Translations under genes and position numbers: made by a program
Shown here: piece after piece, positions 15,040-64,000 of the stretch
Layout: each line of letters begins with the position of its first letter
How positions within the stretch are numbered: the first letter of the stretch is position 1
NCBI GenBank assembly: GCA_963704165.1
Contig: CAVPHD010000005.1
Coordinates: forward strand, 244,905 to 308,904
DNA from: an uncultured delta proteobacterium
Lineage (GTDB): Bacteria > Myxococcota_A > UBA9160 > SZUA-336
Length of the DNA stretch: 64,000 nucleotides
Direction of reading: 5' to 3'
Notes under the pieces: model-generated
Told to the model about the DNA's origin: nothing
The model's input: the letters and a program-made list of their open reading frames with translations, nothing else
The model's database searches: none

Positions 15040-16398
15040 GTGGCCCAGTACGACTTCGACCTGTTCACCATCGGCGCGGGCTCCGGCGGCGTGCGTGCGA
15101 GCCGGATGTCCGCTGGCTACGGCGCACGGGTCGCGGTGGCCGAGGAAAGCCATCTCGGCGGGACGTGCGTCAACGTCGGCTGCATCCCGAAAAAGCTCCT
15201 CGTCTACGCATCGGAGTACGCGGAGCACTTTGCGGACGCCGCAGGCTTCGGTTGGAGCGTGGGCGAGAGCACGTTCGATTGGGCCCGCCTGATCGAGAAC
15301 AAGGATCGGGAGATCGCTCGGCTGAATTCGGTGTACGCGCGCCTGCTCGACGAAGCGGGGGTGAAGCGGGTCGAAGGCCGCGCGCGCATCGTCGATCCCC
15401 ACACCGTAGAAGTCTCGGGACGCACCTACACCGCGGCAAACCTGCTGGTCGCGACGGGAGGCTGGCCCTCGCTTCCCGCGATTCCCGGAATCGAGCACGC
15501 GATCACCTCGAACGAGGCGTTCCACCTGAAGGAGCTTCCGCGGAGCGTCGTCGTGGTCGGCGGTGGCTACATCGCCGTCGAGTTCGCCGGTATCTTCAAT
15601 GGCCTCGGCTCTCTCACCACCGAGCTGTATCGCGGTGAGCTCTTCATGCGTGGATTCGACGAGGACCTTCGGCGCGCACTGGCGGAAGAGATGAGGAGGA
15701 AGGGCGTCGATCTTCGCTTCGGCGCCAACGTCGCTCGAATCGAGAAGCGAGGCGGAGCGCTTCGGGTTCGGCTCGAAGACGAGTCCGTGATCGAAGCCGA
15801 GCAGGTCCTCTACGCGACCGGACGCGTTCCCAAGGTCGCCGGGCTCGGCCTGGAGCAGGCCGGCGTGGCGCTCGACCGCGTCGGCGCCGTCATCGTCGAT
15901 GCCTTCATGCGCACGTCCGTGCCGAGCATCTGGGCGATCGGGGACGTCACCAACCGGTTGAACCTGACGCCGGTTGCGATTCACGAAGGCATGGCGGTCG
16001 CAGCCACGCTCTTCGCGGGCCGTCCCACGCCGCCCGATCACGACGACGTCCCCACGGCCGTGTTCAGCCAGCCGTCGATCGGAACCGTCGGATTGACCGA
16101 GTCCGCCGCACGCGAGACGTTGGGCGAGGTCGACATCTACCGCACGAGCTTTCGATCGCTGCGAAACACGCTGACCGGGAGCGAGGAGAAGACGCTGATG
16201 AAGCTCGTGGTCGATCGCGCGAGCCAGCGCGTCGTCGGCGCGCACATGCTCGGACCCGAGGCTGGCGAGATCATTCAGGGTGTCGCGATCGCGATGAAGT
16301 GCCGCGCGACCAAGGCCATCTTCGATTCCACGCTCGGAATCCATCCGACCGCGGCGGAGGAGTTCGTGACCATGCGAACCCCGGTCGCGAACGCGTGA
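15040..16398 (+). CDS. gor: Glutathione-disulfide reductase
   Basis: [32 protein letters not shown]-terminal [14 protein letters not shown]. Confidence 0.95.
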
Positions 16399-16449
16399 GA
16401 GCGGGCGCGCAGCGTTACACGGAACGGTGGAAGGATCTGCCGATGCACG

Positions 16450-16479
16450 TTGACACGCCGGAGTTGGTTCGGATAGCGT
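16450..16479 (+). promoter_or_regulatory. Putative sigma70 promoter of the leader ORF / metal uptake operon
   Basis: TTGACA (16450-16455)-N18-TAGCGT (16474-16479), 8 nt before GTG 16488. Confidence 0.55.
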
Positions 16480-16487
16480 CGCCGCAG

Positions 16488-16811
16488 GTGGTCGGGATCA
16501 TTCGGACGGACGGGCGACCGCGACGCGCAGCGCAGCTCCGCAGCATTGCGCTCGTCGCCCTGCTCGCCATCGCATCGACCGCGCTGCTACCCCTCGTGCA
16601 CGCTTCATTCGACCACGCAGGCGATTGCGGTGTCTGCAGCGTCTTCGCGCACGATGCGAGCAGCGTCGCCGACGTCGGTCCGAATCCCGGGCTTGCGCCG
16701 ACCTCCGTCGGCCCCGAGGTCGACGCATGCGAACCCGAGGCGGCTCTCCCGCGCCTCTCGGTCGACCGTCACGGCGCGCGCGCACCTCCCGCGATCTTCG
16801 TCGCCGTCTGA
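16488..16811 (+). CDS. DUF2946/CruR-like leader protein (TM segment, HxxxxHxxxCxxC, C-terminal RAPP)
   Basis: IALVALLAIASTALLPLVHASFDHAGDCGVC...HGARAPPAIFVAV. Start uncertain (GTG 16488 or ATG 16443). Confidence 0.72.
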   Translation: MVGIIRTDGRPRRAAQLRSIALVALLAIASTALLPLVHASFDHAGDCGVCSVFAHDASSVADVGPNPGLAPTSVGPEVDACEPEAALPRLSVDRHGARAPPAIFVAV

Positions 16812-16889
16812 GTCGAACTCCACGACCGTTGCCCAGCGCCCGCGCCGCGCGGACGGCTCTTCGGGCAAGCTCTACCCGACGGAGGATGC

Positions 16890-18146
16890 ATGACCCACGC
16901 CCGAACTCACGTATGCGTTGCCGCATTCGCACTCGCGATCTCACTCGCACCGGAAAACGCCTCGAGCGCGGAGAGCGAGGTCGACCTGCTCCGAAGCGAA
17001 CTCTCGACGACGAAGAGGGACCTCGCGGAGACGCGAGAAGTGCTCGCGCGCACGATCCAGCTCGTTGACGACCTCTCGCGCAAGGTCGACGACGTCGCCT
17101 CTCGCGCGAAGTCCGAGGACGAATCGCGCGTGCCGAAAGCCGACGAGACCGCGCGATTGCCGCCGGTGAATGCGAACAACCCGGCGATCAGCTTCGTGGT
17201 CGATGGCAAGGCGCGATCGGACACCTCGGGCGATGGGGGCGTCGGCTTCCTGCTCGGATCCGCGGAGCTCTTCATCTCCGCGCCGATCGATCCCTGGCTG
17301 CGCGGCTACATCAGCATCAACGCGACGAGCGACGATTCGTTCGACGTCGAGGAGGCCGCGCTCGTGACGACCGCGCTCCCGTGGAATCTCGAAGTGAAGG
17401 GTGGCCGGCTCTTCGCGGACGTCGGCCGATTTCCACACTGGCACGACGAGGCGCTGCCGTTCGCGGAGCGACCCCAATCGATCGATCGCATCTTCGGGGG
17501 CGAGACGGGCGCGGAGGGAGTCGAGATCTCGTGGCTCGCACCGATCGACCACTTCGTCGCGCTGAAGGCGGGCGTCTACAATTCGATCGGGGAGCTTCCG
17601 GAGGGGTTCGAGAGCTTCGTCGGGCAGCCGTCGTACAGCGAGCTCACGTATCTGCTCCGCCCCCACACCTACGTCGACCTCACCGACAGCCTCAACGCGG
17701 AATTCGGCGGCAGCTACGTCGCGGCTCCGAGCGAAACGCGAAGGCGGCTCTACGGCGTCGACGTCGTACTTCGGCACCAGCCCGGCTCGAGCTCGTTCTA
17801 CCAGGGAACCGCCGTCGGTTCGGAGTGGTACTGGAACGATCAGGAGTTCCTCGACGCGGGGGGCGGCTCGAGTCGCTTCCGACGCAACGGCGGCTACGCG
17901 TATTTCGAGAGCTTCTTCGGACGCTCGTTCTCGGCTGGTCTTCTCTTCGATCACGCCGAGGAGATCGCCGACGACACGCTCCGTGAGAACACCTACGCCG
18001 GATTCGTCACGTGGAAGCCCTCGGAGTTCCAGCGCCTGCGCTTCCAACTCGGCGAGATCGACCAACCCGGGCCCAACGATCTGCGCTTCTGGCTGCAGTG
18101 GACCGCCTTCATCGGGAGTCACACGCATGGCTTCGCCAATCGCTAG
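16890..18146 (+). CDS. Outer-membrane beta-barrel (porin-like) of a metal uptake operon, with N-terminal coiled coil
   Basis: Signal peptide, coiled coil, NPAIS, AELFISAPIDP, EEAAL, HWHDEALPF, C-terminal LQWTAFIGSHTHGF. GGAGG Shine-Dalgarno. Confidence 0.75.
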   Translation: MTHARTHVCVAAFALAISLAPENASSAESEVDLLRSELSTTKRDLAETREVLARTIQLVDDLSRKVDDVASRAKSEDESRVPKADETARLPPVNANNPAISFVVDGKARSDTSGDGGVGFLLGSAELFISAPIDPWLRGYISINATSDDSFDVEEAALVTTALPWNLEVKGGRLFADVGRFPHWHDEALPFAERPQSIDRIFGGETGAEGVEISWLAPIDHFVALKAGVYNSIGELPEGFESFVGQPSYSELTYLLRPHTYVDLTDSLNAEFGGSYVAAPSETRRRLYGVDVVLRHQPGSSSFYQGTAVGSEWYWNDQEFLDAGGGSSRFRRNGGYAYFESFFGRSFSAGLLFDHAEEIADDTLRENTYAGFVTWKPSEFQRLRFQLGEIDQPGPNDLRFWLQWTAFIGSHTHGFANR

Positions 18147-19044
18147 CACGCTCTTCGCTCTCGCGGTCACGCTGCGCGTGGTCGCCAGCACGCCGGACGT
18201 CGCCGACATGACGCGTCAGATCGGAGGCGATCGCGTCGAGGTCACGACGATCGCGGAAGGCAGGCAGGATCCTCACAAGGTCCCCGTGAAGCCGAGCTTC
18301 GTCACGAAGCTGAACCGCGCCGACATCCTGGTCGTGCACGGACTCGGACTCGAGGACGCGTTCCTCCCCGCACTGCTCGAGGCTTCGCGAAACCCGCGGA
18401 TCGCACCGGGAATGCCGGCGTACATCGACAGTTCGCTCTACGTCGAGGCACTCGAGGTTCCGAGCAGTACCGACCGCAGTCAGGGCGAGCTGCACCCGCT
18501 CGGCAATCCGCACTTCAACATGGATCCCGCACAGGGCAAGCGGATGGCCCGCGCGATCGCGGAGGGACTGGAGCGCGTGGATCCGGCCGGAGCCACCGTC
18601 TACCGCGAGGGCCTGGCCAGATTCACCGCGCAGATCGACGAGAAGATCCCTGTCTGGCTCGAGCTCGCGGAGCCGCTTCGGGGAACGAGGGCGGTCTCCT
18701 ACCATCGGGATCTGGTCTACTTCGCGCGGTTCTTCGGGCTCGTTCTCGCGGGAACGATCGAAACCCGACCCGGTGTGCCCGCGACACCTCGGCACGTCGC
18801 GCAGCTGATCGCGCGGATGAAGGCCGACGGGGTCCGGCTCGTGATCCGGGAGGTCGCGTACGAGATGCCGCTCGCCGAAGCCGTTGCCGCGAAGTCCGGC
18901 GCGCGGGTCGCGACCGTGGCCACGCTGACCGGCGGGCTTCCGGGCGCGGACACCTACATCGCCTTCGTCGAAGCGAACCTGCGCGCGGTGCTCGCGGCGG
19001 CCGCGCCCGCGGAGCCCCGCGAGCCGGTCGGCGGCGACGAATGA
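18127..19044 (+). CDS. Zn/Mn ABC transporter substrate-binding protein (cluster A-I)
   Basis: RVVAST, QDPH, HPLGNPHFNMDP, SYH metal-ligand motifs. Confidence 0.9.
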   Translation: MASPIASTLFALAVTLRVVASTPDVADMTRQIGGDRVEVTTIAEGRQDPHKVPVKPSFVTKLNRADILVVHGLGLEDAFLPALLEASRNPRIAPGMPAYIDSSLYVEALEVPSSTDRSQGELHPLGNPHFNMDPAQGKRMARAIAEGLERVDPAGATVYREGLARFTAQIDEKIPVWLELAEPLRGTRAVSYHRDLVYFARFFGLVLAGTIETRPGVPATPRHVAQLIARMKADGVRLVIREVAYEMPLAEAVAAKSGARVATVATLTGGLPGADTYIAFVEANLRAVLAAAAPAEPREPVGGDE

Positions 19045-19694
19045 GCGACACGCAGATCTCGGTCGAGCACGCCGATCTCGGCCATCGCGGACAGCCGGTG
19101 CTGCGGCAGGTCTCGCTCTCGATCCGAAAGGACGAGTTCGTCGCGGTGCTCGGACCGAACGGCTCCGGGAAGACCACGCTTCTTCGCAGCCTGCTCGGAT
19201 TTCTCCCACCGCTCTCGGGAAGGATCTCTCGCGAGCCGGCCCTGCGAGTCGGGTACGTGCCACAGCGCGAGACGCTCGACCCGAACTACCCGCTCTCGGG
19301 TGCGCAGGTCGCGCTCTTCGGCACCTACGGCGATCTGCCGTTCTGGCGCCCTTTGGGACGCTCCGCGCGGGAACGGGCGCGCTCGGCGCTCGAGGCTTGC
19401 GACGCGCTCGATTTCGCGAGCCGGCGCTACTCGGAGCTGTCGGGCGGACAGCGCCAGCGCATTCTGATCGCGCGGGCCCTTGCGACTTCGCCGACCCTGC
19501 TCCTGCTCGACGAGCCGACCGCCCTCGTGGATCGGGAATCCGAGATCGCGATCCTCGACGCGCTCGCCGAGCTGCGTCGCGAGCGGTCGCTCTCGATCTG
19601 GCTCGTCACGCACCACGAGGAAGCACTGCGCGATCGCGTCGATCGGATCGCGCGCGTCGAGGACGGCACGGTCACTGTGGAGGCGCCGTCGTGA
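19041..19694 (+). CDS. Zn/Mn ABC transporter ATP-binding protein (ZnuC-like)
   Basis: GPNGSGKTT, GYVPQ, LSGGQRQR, LLLLDEPT, VTH. Confidence 0.92.
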   Translation: MSDTQISVEHADLGHRGQPVLRQVSLSIRKDEFVAVLGPNGSGKTTLLRSLLGFLPPLSGRISREPALRVGYVPQRETLDPNYPLSGAQVALFGTYGDLPFWRPLGRSARERARSALEACDALDFASRRYSELSGGQRQRILIARALATSPTLLLLDEPTALVDRESEIAILDALAELRRERSLSIWLVTHHEEALRDRVDRIARVEDGTVTVEAPS

Positions 19695-20539
19695 TCGAGG
19701 TCTTCTCCCCCGATTTCCTGTTCCGCAACGCGATCGTCGGCGGCGCGATCGTCTGCGTGCTCTGCTCCGTACTCGGCGTCTACGTCGTCCTCCGGCGCAT
19801 GGTCCTGCTCGGCATGGCCCTGCCGCAAGCGGGCGCGGCCGGGATCGCCGCCGTCTTCTTCGCCACCGGCCACTCGCACGGCGATCCCGGACAGGCGCAC
19901 GCGCTCGCGCTCGTCGGATCACTCGCCGCCACCTTCAGTGCGCTCGGTGCGCTCGTGCTCTCGGGACGCAACGCGGCGCAGCCGGTCGAGTGGCGAATCG
20001 GCGCGGTGCTCGCGATCGCCACCGCGGCGACGCTCTTCTTCGTCGCCCTGTCGCCGACCGGAGATCTCGAGATGACGAGCCTGCTTCGCGGAGAGCTGCT
20101 GGCGATCTCCGATCGCGACCTCGGGGTGCTCGTGTCGGTCGCGTCGCTGATCGCACTGGTCTTCGCGATCTTCCGACGCGAGCTCCTGCTCGTCTCGTTC
20201 GACCCCGAGTTCGCACACACGATCGGGCTCGATCCGGTGCGCTACGACCTCGTGCTCCACCTGATGCTCGGCGCGACGATCTCGATCGGCGTGATGACGG
20301 CGGGGCCGATGGTGGTCTTCGCATTCCTCGTGCTGCCCGCGCTCGCGGCCCTTCGACTCGGACGCTCGATGCCGATGACGTTCGCCGTCGCTGCAGGAGT
20401 CGCTCTCGTCTCGTCGGTCGGAGGCTTTGCGGTTTCGTACCGTGCCGACCTTCCGACGGGCCCGGTCTACGTCCTGATCGCGGCGTCGATCTGGCTGCTC
20501 ACCGACCTGGGGATGCGCTTTCGCGGGCGCTCCACCTGA
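19691..20539 (+). CDS. Zn/Mn ABC transporter permease (ZnuB/ABC-3-like)
   Basis: LGVYVVLRRM, SFDPEFA, DLPTGP, multiple TM helices. GTGA overlap with the ATPase gene. Confidence 0.9.
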   Translation: MIEVFSPDFLFRNAIVGGAIVCVLCSVLGVYVVLRRMVLLGMALPQAGAAGIAAVFFATGHSHGDPGQAHALALVGSLAATFSALGALVLSGRNAAQPVEWRIGAVLAIATAATLFFVALSPTGDLEMTSLLRGELLAISDRDLGVLVSVASLIALVFAIFRRELLLVSFDPEFAHTIGLDPVRYDLVLHLMLGATISIGVMTAGPMVVFAFLVLPALAALRLGRSMPMTFAVAAGVALVSSVGGFAVSYRADLPTGPVYVLIAASIWLLTDLGMRFRGRST

Positions 20540-20579: not shown

Positions 20580-21196
20580 ATGGATCCGCAGCATCCGAGT
20601 GCGGAGCTCCTGCTGCGCTCTATGCGCGCGGGATCTTTCCGATGGTCGATCCGCGCACCGGAGAGATCGAGTACTTCAGCCCGGATCCGCGCACCGTGAT
20701 TCCGCTCGATCGCTTCCACGTACCGCGGAGCCTCGCGCGCGTACGGGCGAAACAGCCGTTCGAGATCCGGACCGACACCGCGTTCGAGCGCGTGATTCGC
20801 GCCTGTGCGGAGCCGCGACCCGGACGGCGCGAGACGTGGATCGACGAGCGGCTGATCGGGGCGTACGTGGATCTGCACGCCCACGGACTCGCGCACAGCG
20901 TCGAGGCGTTCCTGGACGAGCGACTCGTCGGAGGCTTGTACGGCGTGCACATCGGGGCGGCGTTCTTCGGCGAGAGCATGTTCAGCCGACCGGAGCAGGG
21001 GGGCACCGATGCCTCGAAGATCTGCCTGGTCGAGCTGGTGGAAGGGCTGCGCGCCGGTGGATTCACGCTGCTCGACATCCAGTTCTCGACGCCGCACCTC
21101 GCGCGCTTCGGATGCGTCGAGATCCCGCGCGCCCGGTACCTCTCGATGCTCGAGGATGCAATCGAGCGCCGGGGGAACTGGCCGCGCGCCGGGTGA
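20580..21196 (+). CDS. aat: Leucyl/phenylalanyl-tRNA--protein transferase (frameshift at about 20615, probably an error)
   Basis: YARGIFPM, SPDPR, TWI, AHSVE, LVGGLYGV, FFGESMFS, DASKI. ATG 20580 (MDPQHPSAELLL) is one base out of frame. Confidence 0.9.
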
Positions 21197-21205
21197 GGGG
21201 TCCGC

Positions 21206-22419
21206 TCAGGCGCGTTCGGGGTCGAACGCGATGCGCATCTCCTTCACCCCGTTCACGAAGTTCGAGCGCAGGCGTCGCGGTTTCGTGACGAGGCGCGGGT
21301 TCCGGAGGCGCCCGAGCATCTCCTGGAAGATCACCGTGAGCTCGAGTCGCGCCAGGTTCGCGCCGAGGCAGTAGTGCTCTCCGATCCCGAACGCGAGGTG
21401 TTGATTGTCCGTCCGGCCGACGTCGAAGCGGTCCGGATCGACGAAGATCTCCTCGTCGCGATTCGCCGACGGGTACCACATGACGACCTTCTCGCCCTTC
21501 TTGATTCTCCGTCCCGCGGAGCTCCGTGTCGTCGGTCGCGGTGCGTCGGAAGTAGTGCACGGCCGGATCGAAGCGGACGAACTCCTCGACGGCTTGCGGC
21601 ACGAGCGCCGGATTCGCGACCAGCCGCCGGAGCTGTTCGGGATGGTCGAGCAGTGCCTTCATGCCGTTCGTCGTCACGGTGCGCGTCGTCTCGTTGCCGG
21701 CGACGAGCAACAACAGGAAGAACGAGCAGTACTCGAGCTCGTTCAGCTTCTCGCCGTCGATCTCGTGGAAGAGCAGTGCCGTGGTCAGGTTGTCGACCGG
21801 TTCCCGCCGGTACTTCTCGGCGAGCTTCATCGCGTAGCCGAACATCTGAATCGAGGCGTTTCGCGCGTCCTCCGGCGTGTTCTGGAACTCCGGGTCGTCG
21901 AAGCCGATCAGCTTGTTCGAGAGCTCGAAGATCAGCTTACGGTCGTCTTGCGGCACACCCATCAGCTCGCAGATGACCTGGAGCGGCAGCTCCGCGCGCG
22001 AGCTCCTCGACGAACTCGCACTCGCCCTTGGGAGCGACCGCGTCGACGATGCGCGTCGAGAGCGCGCGAAGATAGGGCTCCTGCTTCGCGACCATCTGCG
22101 GCGTGAAGCCGCGCTGCACGATCCGCCGGAACTTCACGTGCTGCGGTGGGTCCATGTTCAGCATGATCATCCGCAGGCCCGCGAGCCCGGTCTCGTCGCG
22201 GTCCTCGATGTTCGTTCCGCCGAGCCAGGACGAGAAGAGCAGCGGGTTGCGCGAGACCGTCTTCACGTCCTCGTACTTGGTCACGCACCAGAACCCGGGA
22301 CCGTTCTTCTCGCGGTGCCAGTGGACCGGATCCTCGCTGCGTAGCACCTTCAGCCAGTGGTGCGGAGTTCCCGGCACGAAGTTGTCGGGGTCTCCGAGGT
22401 CGATGTCGTCGAGGTTCAT
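21206..22419 (-). CDS. Cytochrome P450, CYP125/CYP142-like (steroid C26-monooxygenase family), two frameshifts at about 21995 and 21510
   Basis: Three overlapping ORFs join into one P450: LNMDPPQH..RGFTP, ELPLQVI, VAGNETTR, EEFVR, FRRTAT, SANRDE, AFGIGEHYCLGANLARLE. Confidence 0.85.
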
Positions 22420-55959: not shown

Positions 55960-60230
<4,271 letters not shown>

Positions 60231-60245
60231 AGAGGGGGTTGGATC

Positions 60246-63910
<3,665 letters not shown>

Positions 63911-64000
63911 ATATGGGGCCAAGAGCGATGTCTTCCGGTCGCCGAGAAGTAGAGCCTTTTCAATGGCTTCGAATCCGGCCGCCCGTATGGGCGGTTGCCT

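Follow-up and report, generated by a model that had tools for sequence, protein, structure and literature searches.

The 64,000-nucleotide (nt) stretch of DNA analysed here, called the window below, comes from an uncultured delta proteobacterium and contains a short open reading frame (ORF) at the head of an operon that encodes an outer-membrane porin and a cluster A-I ATP-binding cassette (ABC) importer. We are highly confident that this ORF, which resembles CruR of the DUF2946 family, is a cis-acting arrest leader. On balance we also lean towards a complete model of its action, in which the leader stalls the ribosome at its RAPP motif when a metal, probably zinc, is scarce, the stall uncovers the ribosome-binding site (RBS) of the porin gene, and the operon is switched on. 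All coordinates are positions within the window. The leader and its surroundings consist of the following elements.

16416..16431, no strand assigned: conserved inverted repeat (T)ACAC-N6-GTG, a candidate transcription-factor site
16450..16479, + strand: predicted sigma70-type promoter, TTGACA (16450-16455), 18 nt, TAGCGT (16474-16479)
16488..16811, + strand: leader ORF, DUF2946/CruR-like, GTG start, 107 codons, TGA at 16809-16811
16779..16790, + strand: RAPP codons CGC GCA CCT CCC, with CCTCC at 16785-16789 complementary to the Shine-Dalgarno (SD) sequence of the porin gene
16812..16889, + strand: spacer of 78 nt with stacked hairpins, GGAGG SD at 16881-16885

The leader is the first gene of the operon, with the promoter directly upstream. 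A preliminary description of this DNA had noted a hydrophobic segment, an H-x4-H-x3-CGVC motif and a RAPP six codons ahead of the stop. All of these are found in the sequence and its translation: the hydrophobic segment at residues 20-36, the motif at H38 (16599), H43 (16614), C47 (16626) and C50 (16635), and RAPP at residues 98-101, with 47 residues separating the CxxC (C47-G-V-C50) from RAPP. The hydrophobic segment follows an Arg-rich n-region, has a Kyte-Doolittle value of 2.46, and is a putative export signal. The linker, which had been called Pro-rich, does contain Pro, but the enrichment is mild (6 of 47 residues). In the six frames of the 3.87-Mb genome the pattern CxxC-(40-52 residues)-R[AG]PP-short tail-stop occurs four times. 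Of these occurrences the leader alone resembles a gene, the three others being Arg-rich off-frame sequences, and it is the sole RAPP ORF with a hydrophobic segment. A second DUF2946-like match in the genome (L100) is without RAPP and was rejected as spurious.

Comparison with related loci reveals that the leader goes together with the porin. Porin searches gave 12 loci, mostly from Myxococcota records, and 29 loci from 61 related genomes, 41 in all; seven duplicates, one locus without upstream DNA (L009) and the window itself were dropped, which leaves 32. In 32 of these 32 other distinct loci an R[AG]PP ORF ends shortly before the porin gene, even where the porins are only about 25% identical, and in 30 a CxxC lies 43-47 residues before R[AG]PP. 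The remaining two are L019, in which the second Cys is lost, and L040, which is cut by a contig end. Conservation of the upstream ORF before orthologous operons had been proposed as a check, and it is borne out by these counts.

In an alignment of 29 leaders, only C47, R98, P100 and P101 are invariant, while H38 and C50 are kept in at least 90% (C50 in 28 of 29) and R[AG]PP in 29 of 29. The length is variable ahead of the CxxC and nearly constant after it, and therefore the Cys pair is fixed relative to the active site of the ribosome and not to a membrane anchor. Apart from its spacing to RAPP, the mature part is barely conserved. The ratio of nonsynonymous to synonymous substitution rates (dN/dS) is 0.32-0.83 across 12 leader pairs and 0.38 between the window and its closest relative, i.e., the leader is under purifying selection.

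The relationship to DUF2946 (PF11162) is visible at the level of the family, less so for the single sequence. For 19 of the 29 leaders the best-scoring family is DUF2946 (matches at E<=5), and the window leader matches, with a score of 0.94, an ESM Atlas cluster of which 48% is DUF2946. The motif features of the family are all present, i.e., CxxC, a C-terminal RAPP, a spacing of 45 +/- 2 residues (47 here), a putative export signal and the first position in the operon. The search against the DUF2946 hidden Markov model (HMM) suggested in the preliminary description gives a divided answer: two of the 28 orthologous leaders pass the gathering cut-off (24.0 and 25.2 bits), but the window leader is a weak match that stays below it.

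Upstream of the promoter, a glutathione-reductase-like gene ends at 16398. A TTGAC-like -35 element is found 35-38 nt ahead of the leader start in 14 of 15 aligned close-clade loci, and TAnnnT lies 13-14 nt ahead of the start, ending 7-8 nt from it, in 15 of 15. The TTGACA promoter first proposed is supported by this positional conservation in relatives. Its -10 element TAGCGT matches at only three of six positions, which explains why a consensus promoter scan gave 0 sites. As the promoter position is conserved, the mRNA is predicted to be nearly leaderless, with GTG 16488 the likely start. The database gene call starts at ATG 16443 (a form of 122 residues), upstream of the -35; this start and GTG 16299 were both rejected, as both lie upstream of the conserved -35.

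In 10 of the 29 loci scanned, the inverted repeat is found 68-79 nt upstream of the leader start, with differing upstream genes, and it is possibly an activator site for some factor. It is of low information: a genome scan gave 97 matches, of which only the window copy lies ahead of a TTGAC promoter, and no regulon could be defined by it. No conserved palindrome overlapping the leader promoter was seen in the aligned relatives, as judged by eye.

The operon continues with four genes.

16890..18146, + strand: outer-membrane porin, 418 residues, ATG start; signal, coiled coil, plug-less beta-barrel and C-terminal SHxHGF
18136..19044, + strand: solute-binding protein (SBP), ZnuA family, cluster A-I; PF01297 E 1.5e-47; H47, H120, H126, H190
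19041..19694, + strand: ABC ATPase, ZnuC/AztA-like; PF00005; best NCBIfam match AztA, E 5.5e-52, below cut-off
19691..20539, + strand: ABC-3 permease, ZnuB/AztB-like; PF00950 E 5.1e-44; best NCBIfam match AztB, below cut-off; internal HSH loop

The last three genes had been read as overlapping SBP, ATPase and permease genes of cluster A-I type, and the Pfam matches and the overlaps of 11, 4 and 4 nt at their starts confirm this. With a PF01297 SBP, an ABC ATPase, a PF00950 permease and three His ligands, the system has the features of a cluster A-I zinc ABC importer. The best NCBIfam matches of the SBP, the ATPase and the permease are the zinc proteins AztC, AztA and AztB, and the SBP also matches Deinococcus MntC, all below cut-off. 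The best match of the SBP in the PDB is 2ov1, annotated as a zinc-uptake SBP. All 35 loci retain H47, H120 and H126; H190, which the alignment reaches in 34 of them, is conserved in 33. The third ligand is His rather than Glu, and there is no Asp near the fourth-ligand position. Mn-type SBPs use His-His-Glu-Asp ligands. A site of three His plus Glu or water is that of the zinc group II SBPs (PMC8900738). Of the long His-rich loop of group II, a single additional His, H120, remains. No other ZnuA-family gene was found in the genome, which is 84% complete and also contains a ZIP-family gene.

The gene before the importer encodes a porin and not a TonB receptor, since the best Foldseek matches of its AlphaFold model (49 sequences, mean predicted local distance difference test score, pLDDT, 67) are the porins chitoporin, PorB, Omp32 and OprP, with E about 1e-8. 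The model has a signal, a coiled coil and a barrel that lacks a plug. Pfam gave no plug or TonB match in the 418 residues, and the plug and 22-stranded barrel of TonB-dependent receptors are not found; the protein is 25% identical to one named 'carbohydrate porin'. The beta-barrel with a His-rich C-terminus of the preliminary description is indeed a barrel, but its tail is the two-His motif SHxHGF, invariant in 49 homologues, among which H185, H411 and H413 are invariant.

Further leaders were sought with a leader profile in 301 genomes of the phylum. Matches at E<=0.01 were obtained in 36, with strong matches only within the class, and 11 regions around the matches were inspected. New leaders lie ahead of further porin loci (L078, L081, L084) and, in two genomes, ahead of two receptors that match ZnuD best among the NCBIfam models (L080 and L083; E 9e-88 and 6e-92, below cut-off). 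The most informative region is L076:2769-19998 of a same-genus genome (G006), where three CxxC/RAPP leaders head three tandem operons. These encode a TonB receptor with ExbB, HflK/HflC with a P1B ATPase of the cadmium/zinc family, and the porin-ABC system, and a cation diffusion facilitator (CDF) exporter adjoins them. The island is flanked by a reductase gene and a leucyl/phenylalanyl transferase gene, as in the window, which keeps only the third operon. In P. aeruginosa, the hflKC homologues are counted in the Zur regulon (PMC9431628). None of the leaders examined was seen to be followed by a copper gene.

From the three-His type of the SBP, its place as the sole ZnuA-family protein found in the genome, and the sister leaders at ZnuD-like receptors and the HflKC/P1B-ATPase cluster, zinc is probably the signal. 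The original suggestion that the metal is other than copper is in line with this, as the His-only SBP site and the targets of the sister leaders argue for it. The genome has three Fur-family genes, whose best matches are Fur or PerR; the Zur HMM does not discriminate, as its cut-off is passed in none of the 41 genomes but also in just 1 of 14 controls. Among the other regions inspected, the L077 leader is followed by a secretin, with a divergent PEP-CTERM gene, and at L079 and L082 there are ORFs that resemble Flp/Tad pilus proteins by translation, without a family match at the threshold applied. In another class, at L086:6135-6503 on the minus strand, a His-rich small ORF ending in HSPP heads porin, SBP and ATPase genes and a TonB receptor. 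This HSPP is possibly a variant of the RAPP motif.

The 78-nt spacer with its GGAGG before the porin is present as first described. A TTGCCC...GGGCAA stem had also been pointed out in it. The letters are there (16829-16834/16863-16868), but the two closest relatives do not have this stem, and the SD is not part of it. Its pairing probability (P) is 0-0.24 in free RNA and reaches 0.69 only with the leader masked through the stop codon. With its lack of conservation, low pairing probability and an SD outside the stem, it was rejected as the switch.

The RAPP and tail codons of the leader itself are a better candidate for masking the SD. A consensus structure of this region and its two closest relatives contains three spacer hairpins that are closed by pairing between the leader tail and the SD; 3 of the 31 pairs show a two-sided change, in an alignment of only three sequences. 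The CCTCC of RAPP pairs with the SD in the minimum free energy fold, and P is 0.33 in the ensemble of the near-identical segment 16770-16900. In 14 of 31 loci the Pro pair of RAPP begins with CCT, which creates CCTCC. By comparison, CCT accounts for 11% of the first codons of Pro-Pro pairs among 1350 genes crudely called in this genome, and for 13 of the 207 remaining Pro codons of the leaders. In several of the loci that have no CCTCC at RAPP, the tail contains a word resembling C(C/T)TCC.

In a footprint test, the stall footprint was forced to be single-stranded and the predicted opening energy of the RBS was compared with that of 20 synonymous recodings per locus. Omitted were L010 and L037 (porin start uncertain), L033 (no SD), and L032 and L034 (added later). 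In the 16 close loci, the median drop in opening energy is 5.9 kcal/mol against 1.0 for the recoded leaders, with 13 of 16 higher than their recodings; in the 12 distant loci the drop is 2.2 against 0.6 kcal/mol, with 9 of 12 higher. It is predicted that RAPP and tail codons mask the porin SD in most relatives, with a weak effect in the window and a larger one in the L014 and L011 orthologues. A scan of the spacer found no terminator-like site.

The output of the switch can be narrowed by the loss of rho. At G000:C1:474280-474340, outside the window, a 60-nt gap stands in for the 1455-nt rho segment of a same-genus genome (L097). The flanks, a pseudouridine-synthase-like gene and a second ORF on one side and an L31-like gene on the other (named from translations), are joined here on one contig without N. 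This is a clean deletion of rho from a syntenic site. No Rho protein was found in the window genome at its 84% completeness, in 8 of 11 same-genus genomes, several of them 93-97% complete, or in three other leader-bearing genomes that are 93-97% complete, while Rho is present in 3 of the 11 and in most of the class. The loss of Rho in a high-GC Gram-negative lineage seems unusual. Because rho is deleted, Rho-dependent termination of the CruR type is very unlikely here, and the output would rather be CutF-like, i.e., unmasking of the SD.

We suggest that the switch could work as follows. A near-leaderless mRNA would be translated from GTG 16488, and the hydrophobic segment would probably engage Sec. 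By analogy with the toeprint of CruR, the ribosome would arrest with Pro100 in the P site. It would then cover RAPP and the tail codons, which would otherwise be paired with GGAGG across the hairpin-compacted spacer; with the SD unpaired by the stalled ribosome, the porin and the overlapping ABC genes would be translated. C47 and C50, at their fixed distance of 47 residues from RAPP, would sit just outside the exit tunnel or at the mouth of the translocon. Together with H38 and H43 they would bind metal when it is plentiful, and folding or pulling would free the ribosome, so that the SD is masked again. The predicted polarity is that of CruR, by analogy: metal switches uptake off.

A number of observations weigh against this model. 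H38 may fall within a cleaved signal, the orthologue at L019 is a natural variant with Arg in place of the second Cys while RAPP, promoter and spacing are kept, one weak profile match (L085) showed no leader, and the codon and folding statistics overstate the effect, since kin loci are not independent. There are also rival explanations. The same arrest switch could respond to another metal (Cu, Co, Ni, Mn), or the importer could serve mainly something other than zinc. CxxC is a classic Cu(I) site. It senses Cu in both tested prototypes, CruR and CutF; CruR responded little to Zn (PMC9426467), and CutF-like ORFs elsewhere have been proposed as Ni or Co sensors (PMC9973294). Further, the best NCBIfam matches of the SBP, AztC and Deinococcus MntC, all stay below cut-off. 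The ligands of the SBP, with His in place of Glu and without the Asp, point however to zinc group II, and copper genes were not seen behind the leaders examined. Another metal is an unlikely explanation. About as unlikely, if anything slightly more so, is a metal-sensing arrest with an output other than SD unmasking, such as Rho-independent attenuation, mRNA protection, re-initiation, or Rho termination in relatives that keep Rho. In its favour, the footprint effect in the window is 2.7 kcal/mol against 3.0 in recoded controls (15 of 20 as high), which is no excess; 3 of the 16 close loci are likewise without an excess; and the window SD is still about 75% paired locally when the stalled ribosome is modelled. 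In addition, C exceeds G over the final 120 nt of the leader in 31 of 31 loci, as in a rut bubble, for which Pro and Ala codons account in part, and some same-genus genomes and most of the class keep Rho. Against such an output stand the clean deletion of rho here, the three other leader-bearing genomes in which Rho was not found, the spacer without a terminator-like site and the anti-SD codon bias.

Some of the evidence would instead fit a leader that does not sense metal. It could be a secretion or redox monitor like SecM or Apd, in which Sec pulling or a CxxC disulfide frees the stall and couples the synthesis of outer-membrane proteins to export capacity. RAPP peptides that carry a signal sequence are well established as monitors of Sec/YidC, RAPP ORFs are also found ahead of Dsb/thioredoxin genes, and the genes after the leaders of L077, L079 and L082 are without identified metal function. 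Still, the Cys spacing is invariant and the His near-invariant, the identified targets are metal transporters, and the metal response of CruR requires the CxxC; we regard a monitor of this kind as somewhat less probable again than another output. It is quite improbable that the ORF encodes a small metal-binding protein that is exported and acts in trans, like ZrgD or CzcI, with the operon under transcriptional control only, e.g., through the upstream inverted repeat. The signal-like N-terminus with His and Cys, the conserved upstream palindrome and the three Fur-family genes would agree with it, but the mature part is barely conserved save for its spacing to RAPP, the ORF is always first in the operon, ordinary proteins avoid RAPP, and no palindrome was seen over the promoter. 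Finally, long off-frame ORFs are common in the window, and the leader reaches only 15.7 bits against DUF2946 (E 0.026; gathering cut-off 23.7). Nevertheless, a chance ORF in GC-rich DNA can practically be dismissed, given the 32 of 32 other loci, dN/dS <1 and the conserved promoter and start.

Elsewhere in the window, a cytochrome P450-like gene on the minus strand (21063-21962 and 21937-22419) is split over several frames, with a longer open frame in L002 and L006, and appears to contain frameshifts or assembly errors. RNA-polymerase-like genes (rpoB/rpoC by translation) at 56779-63949 on the plus strand lie in several overlapping frames, which suggests indel errors in the assembly.

The closest known system is CruR (Bp2923) of Bordetella pertussis, a DUF2946/PF11162 protein that works through Rho and has a CxxC-RAPP spacing of 45, constant within 1-2 residues (PMC9426467). 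Its RAPP-dependent arrest was demonstrated in vitro by toeprint (PMC12992588). Like CruR, the window leader is the first gene of a metal-uptake operon and has a putative export signal, a CxxC, RAPP near the stop and a fixed spacing between the two (45 in CruR, 47 here), and the predicted logic is the same, in that metal relieves the stall and turns uptake off. However, the target of CruR is a TonB copper receptor and not a plug-less porin with a cluster A-I ABC importer, its spacer is 162 nt long compared with 78 nt here, and the window genome has no Rho. The predicted near-leaderless mRNA, the extra His, the Myxococcota-type host and the score under the Pfam cut-off are further differences. 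CutF of Rhodobacter capsulatus (PMC9973294, bioRxiv 10.1101/2025.02.05.636593) is an exported, Cys-containing nascent sensor with a short spacer and an output by SD unmasking; the window leader resembles it in its Cys residues and short spacer and, as predicted, in export, sensing and SD unmasking. In contrast to the CxxC and RAPP of the window leader, CutF has a CxxxC and a Cu-induced Pro-rich stall, and it drives a detoxifying oxidase, while the importer target here implies the opposite polarity.

Related gene pairs can be found in published tables. The source data for Fig 4B of PMC12992588 catalogue RAPP/RGPP small ORFs, including some before related porin classes and ZrgA, and the porin-class rows are likely the same porin family as the window porin. 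In the main text of that paper, as far as available, the word 'zinc' is absent and none of the porin or ZrgA classes is tested. In Vibrio, zrgD (DUF2607) is a small gene directly before zrgA (DUF2796) in the Zur-regulated zinc-uptake operon zrgDABCE (PMC9817125), and DUF2607 ORFs before DUF2796 have His clusters and a terminal RAPP in the rows of PMC12992588. Thus, zrgD resembles the window leader as a small gene that heads zinc-uptake genes and ends with RAPP, but it belongs to another Pfam family, often has a single Cys, is controlled by Zur and, in the available text, is not described as an arrest peptide. The RAPP ending suggests that ZrgD may be an arrest leader too. In Caulobacter, CC2720 (DUF2946) heads czrCBA-zntA (PMC4176598); it is likewise a DUF2946 gene at the head of a zinc-linked operon, but this is an efflux operon activated by Zur. 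No zinc-sensing arrest peptide, proposed or tested, was found in the literature searched, although unread supplements could list the operon type. There are no ZnuA or zinc rows in the available supplements of PMC9426467 and PMC9973294, and 'zinc' is absent from the main text, as available, of these two papers and of bioRxiv 10.1101/2025.02.05.636593; only the Zn control of CruR is described. The available text of PMC6103462 and of bioRxiv 10.64898/2026.01.16.699870 contains nothing of relevance.

Metal-sensing arrest peptides have been proven for copper only (CruR, CutF), and bacterial zinc uptake is normally attributed to the DNA-binding repressor Zur. It can be speculated, more tentatively than the model above, that this bacterium, which is Rho-less and has no recognisable Zur, regulates zinc mainly by a leaderless His/CxxC/RAPP arrest peptide, which gates the only ZnuABC-type importer by stall codons that are at the same time the anti-SD. 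Copies of it would run a zinc-starvation regulon of porin-ZnuABC, ZnuD-like receptors and HflKC/P1B ATPase, and genes such as zrgD may be explained in the same way. Because the loss of rho removes one of the two known outputs, the mechanism is easy to test with a 400-nt reporter. Systems of this kind are known, and the pairing of the genes can already be seen in published source tables, so that the leader described here is an extension rather than a surprise; what it adds are the rho deletion, the predicted near-leaderless start and the island with three leaders. A ZnuABC-type importer gated by a stalling leader would bring zinc, possibly sensed outside the cytoplasm, into the range of nascent-chain sensing and join the polarity of CruR to the output of CutF.

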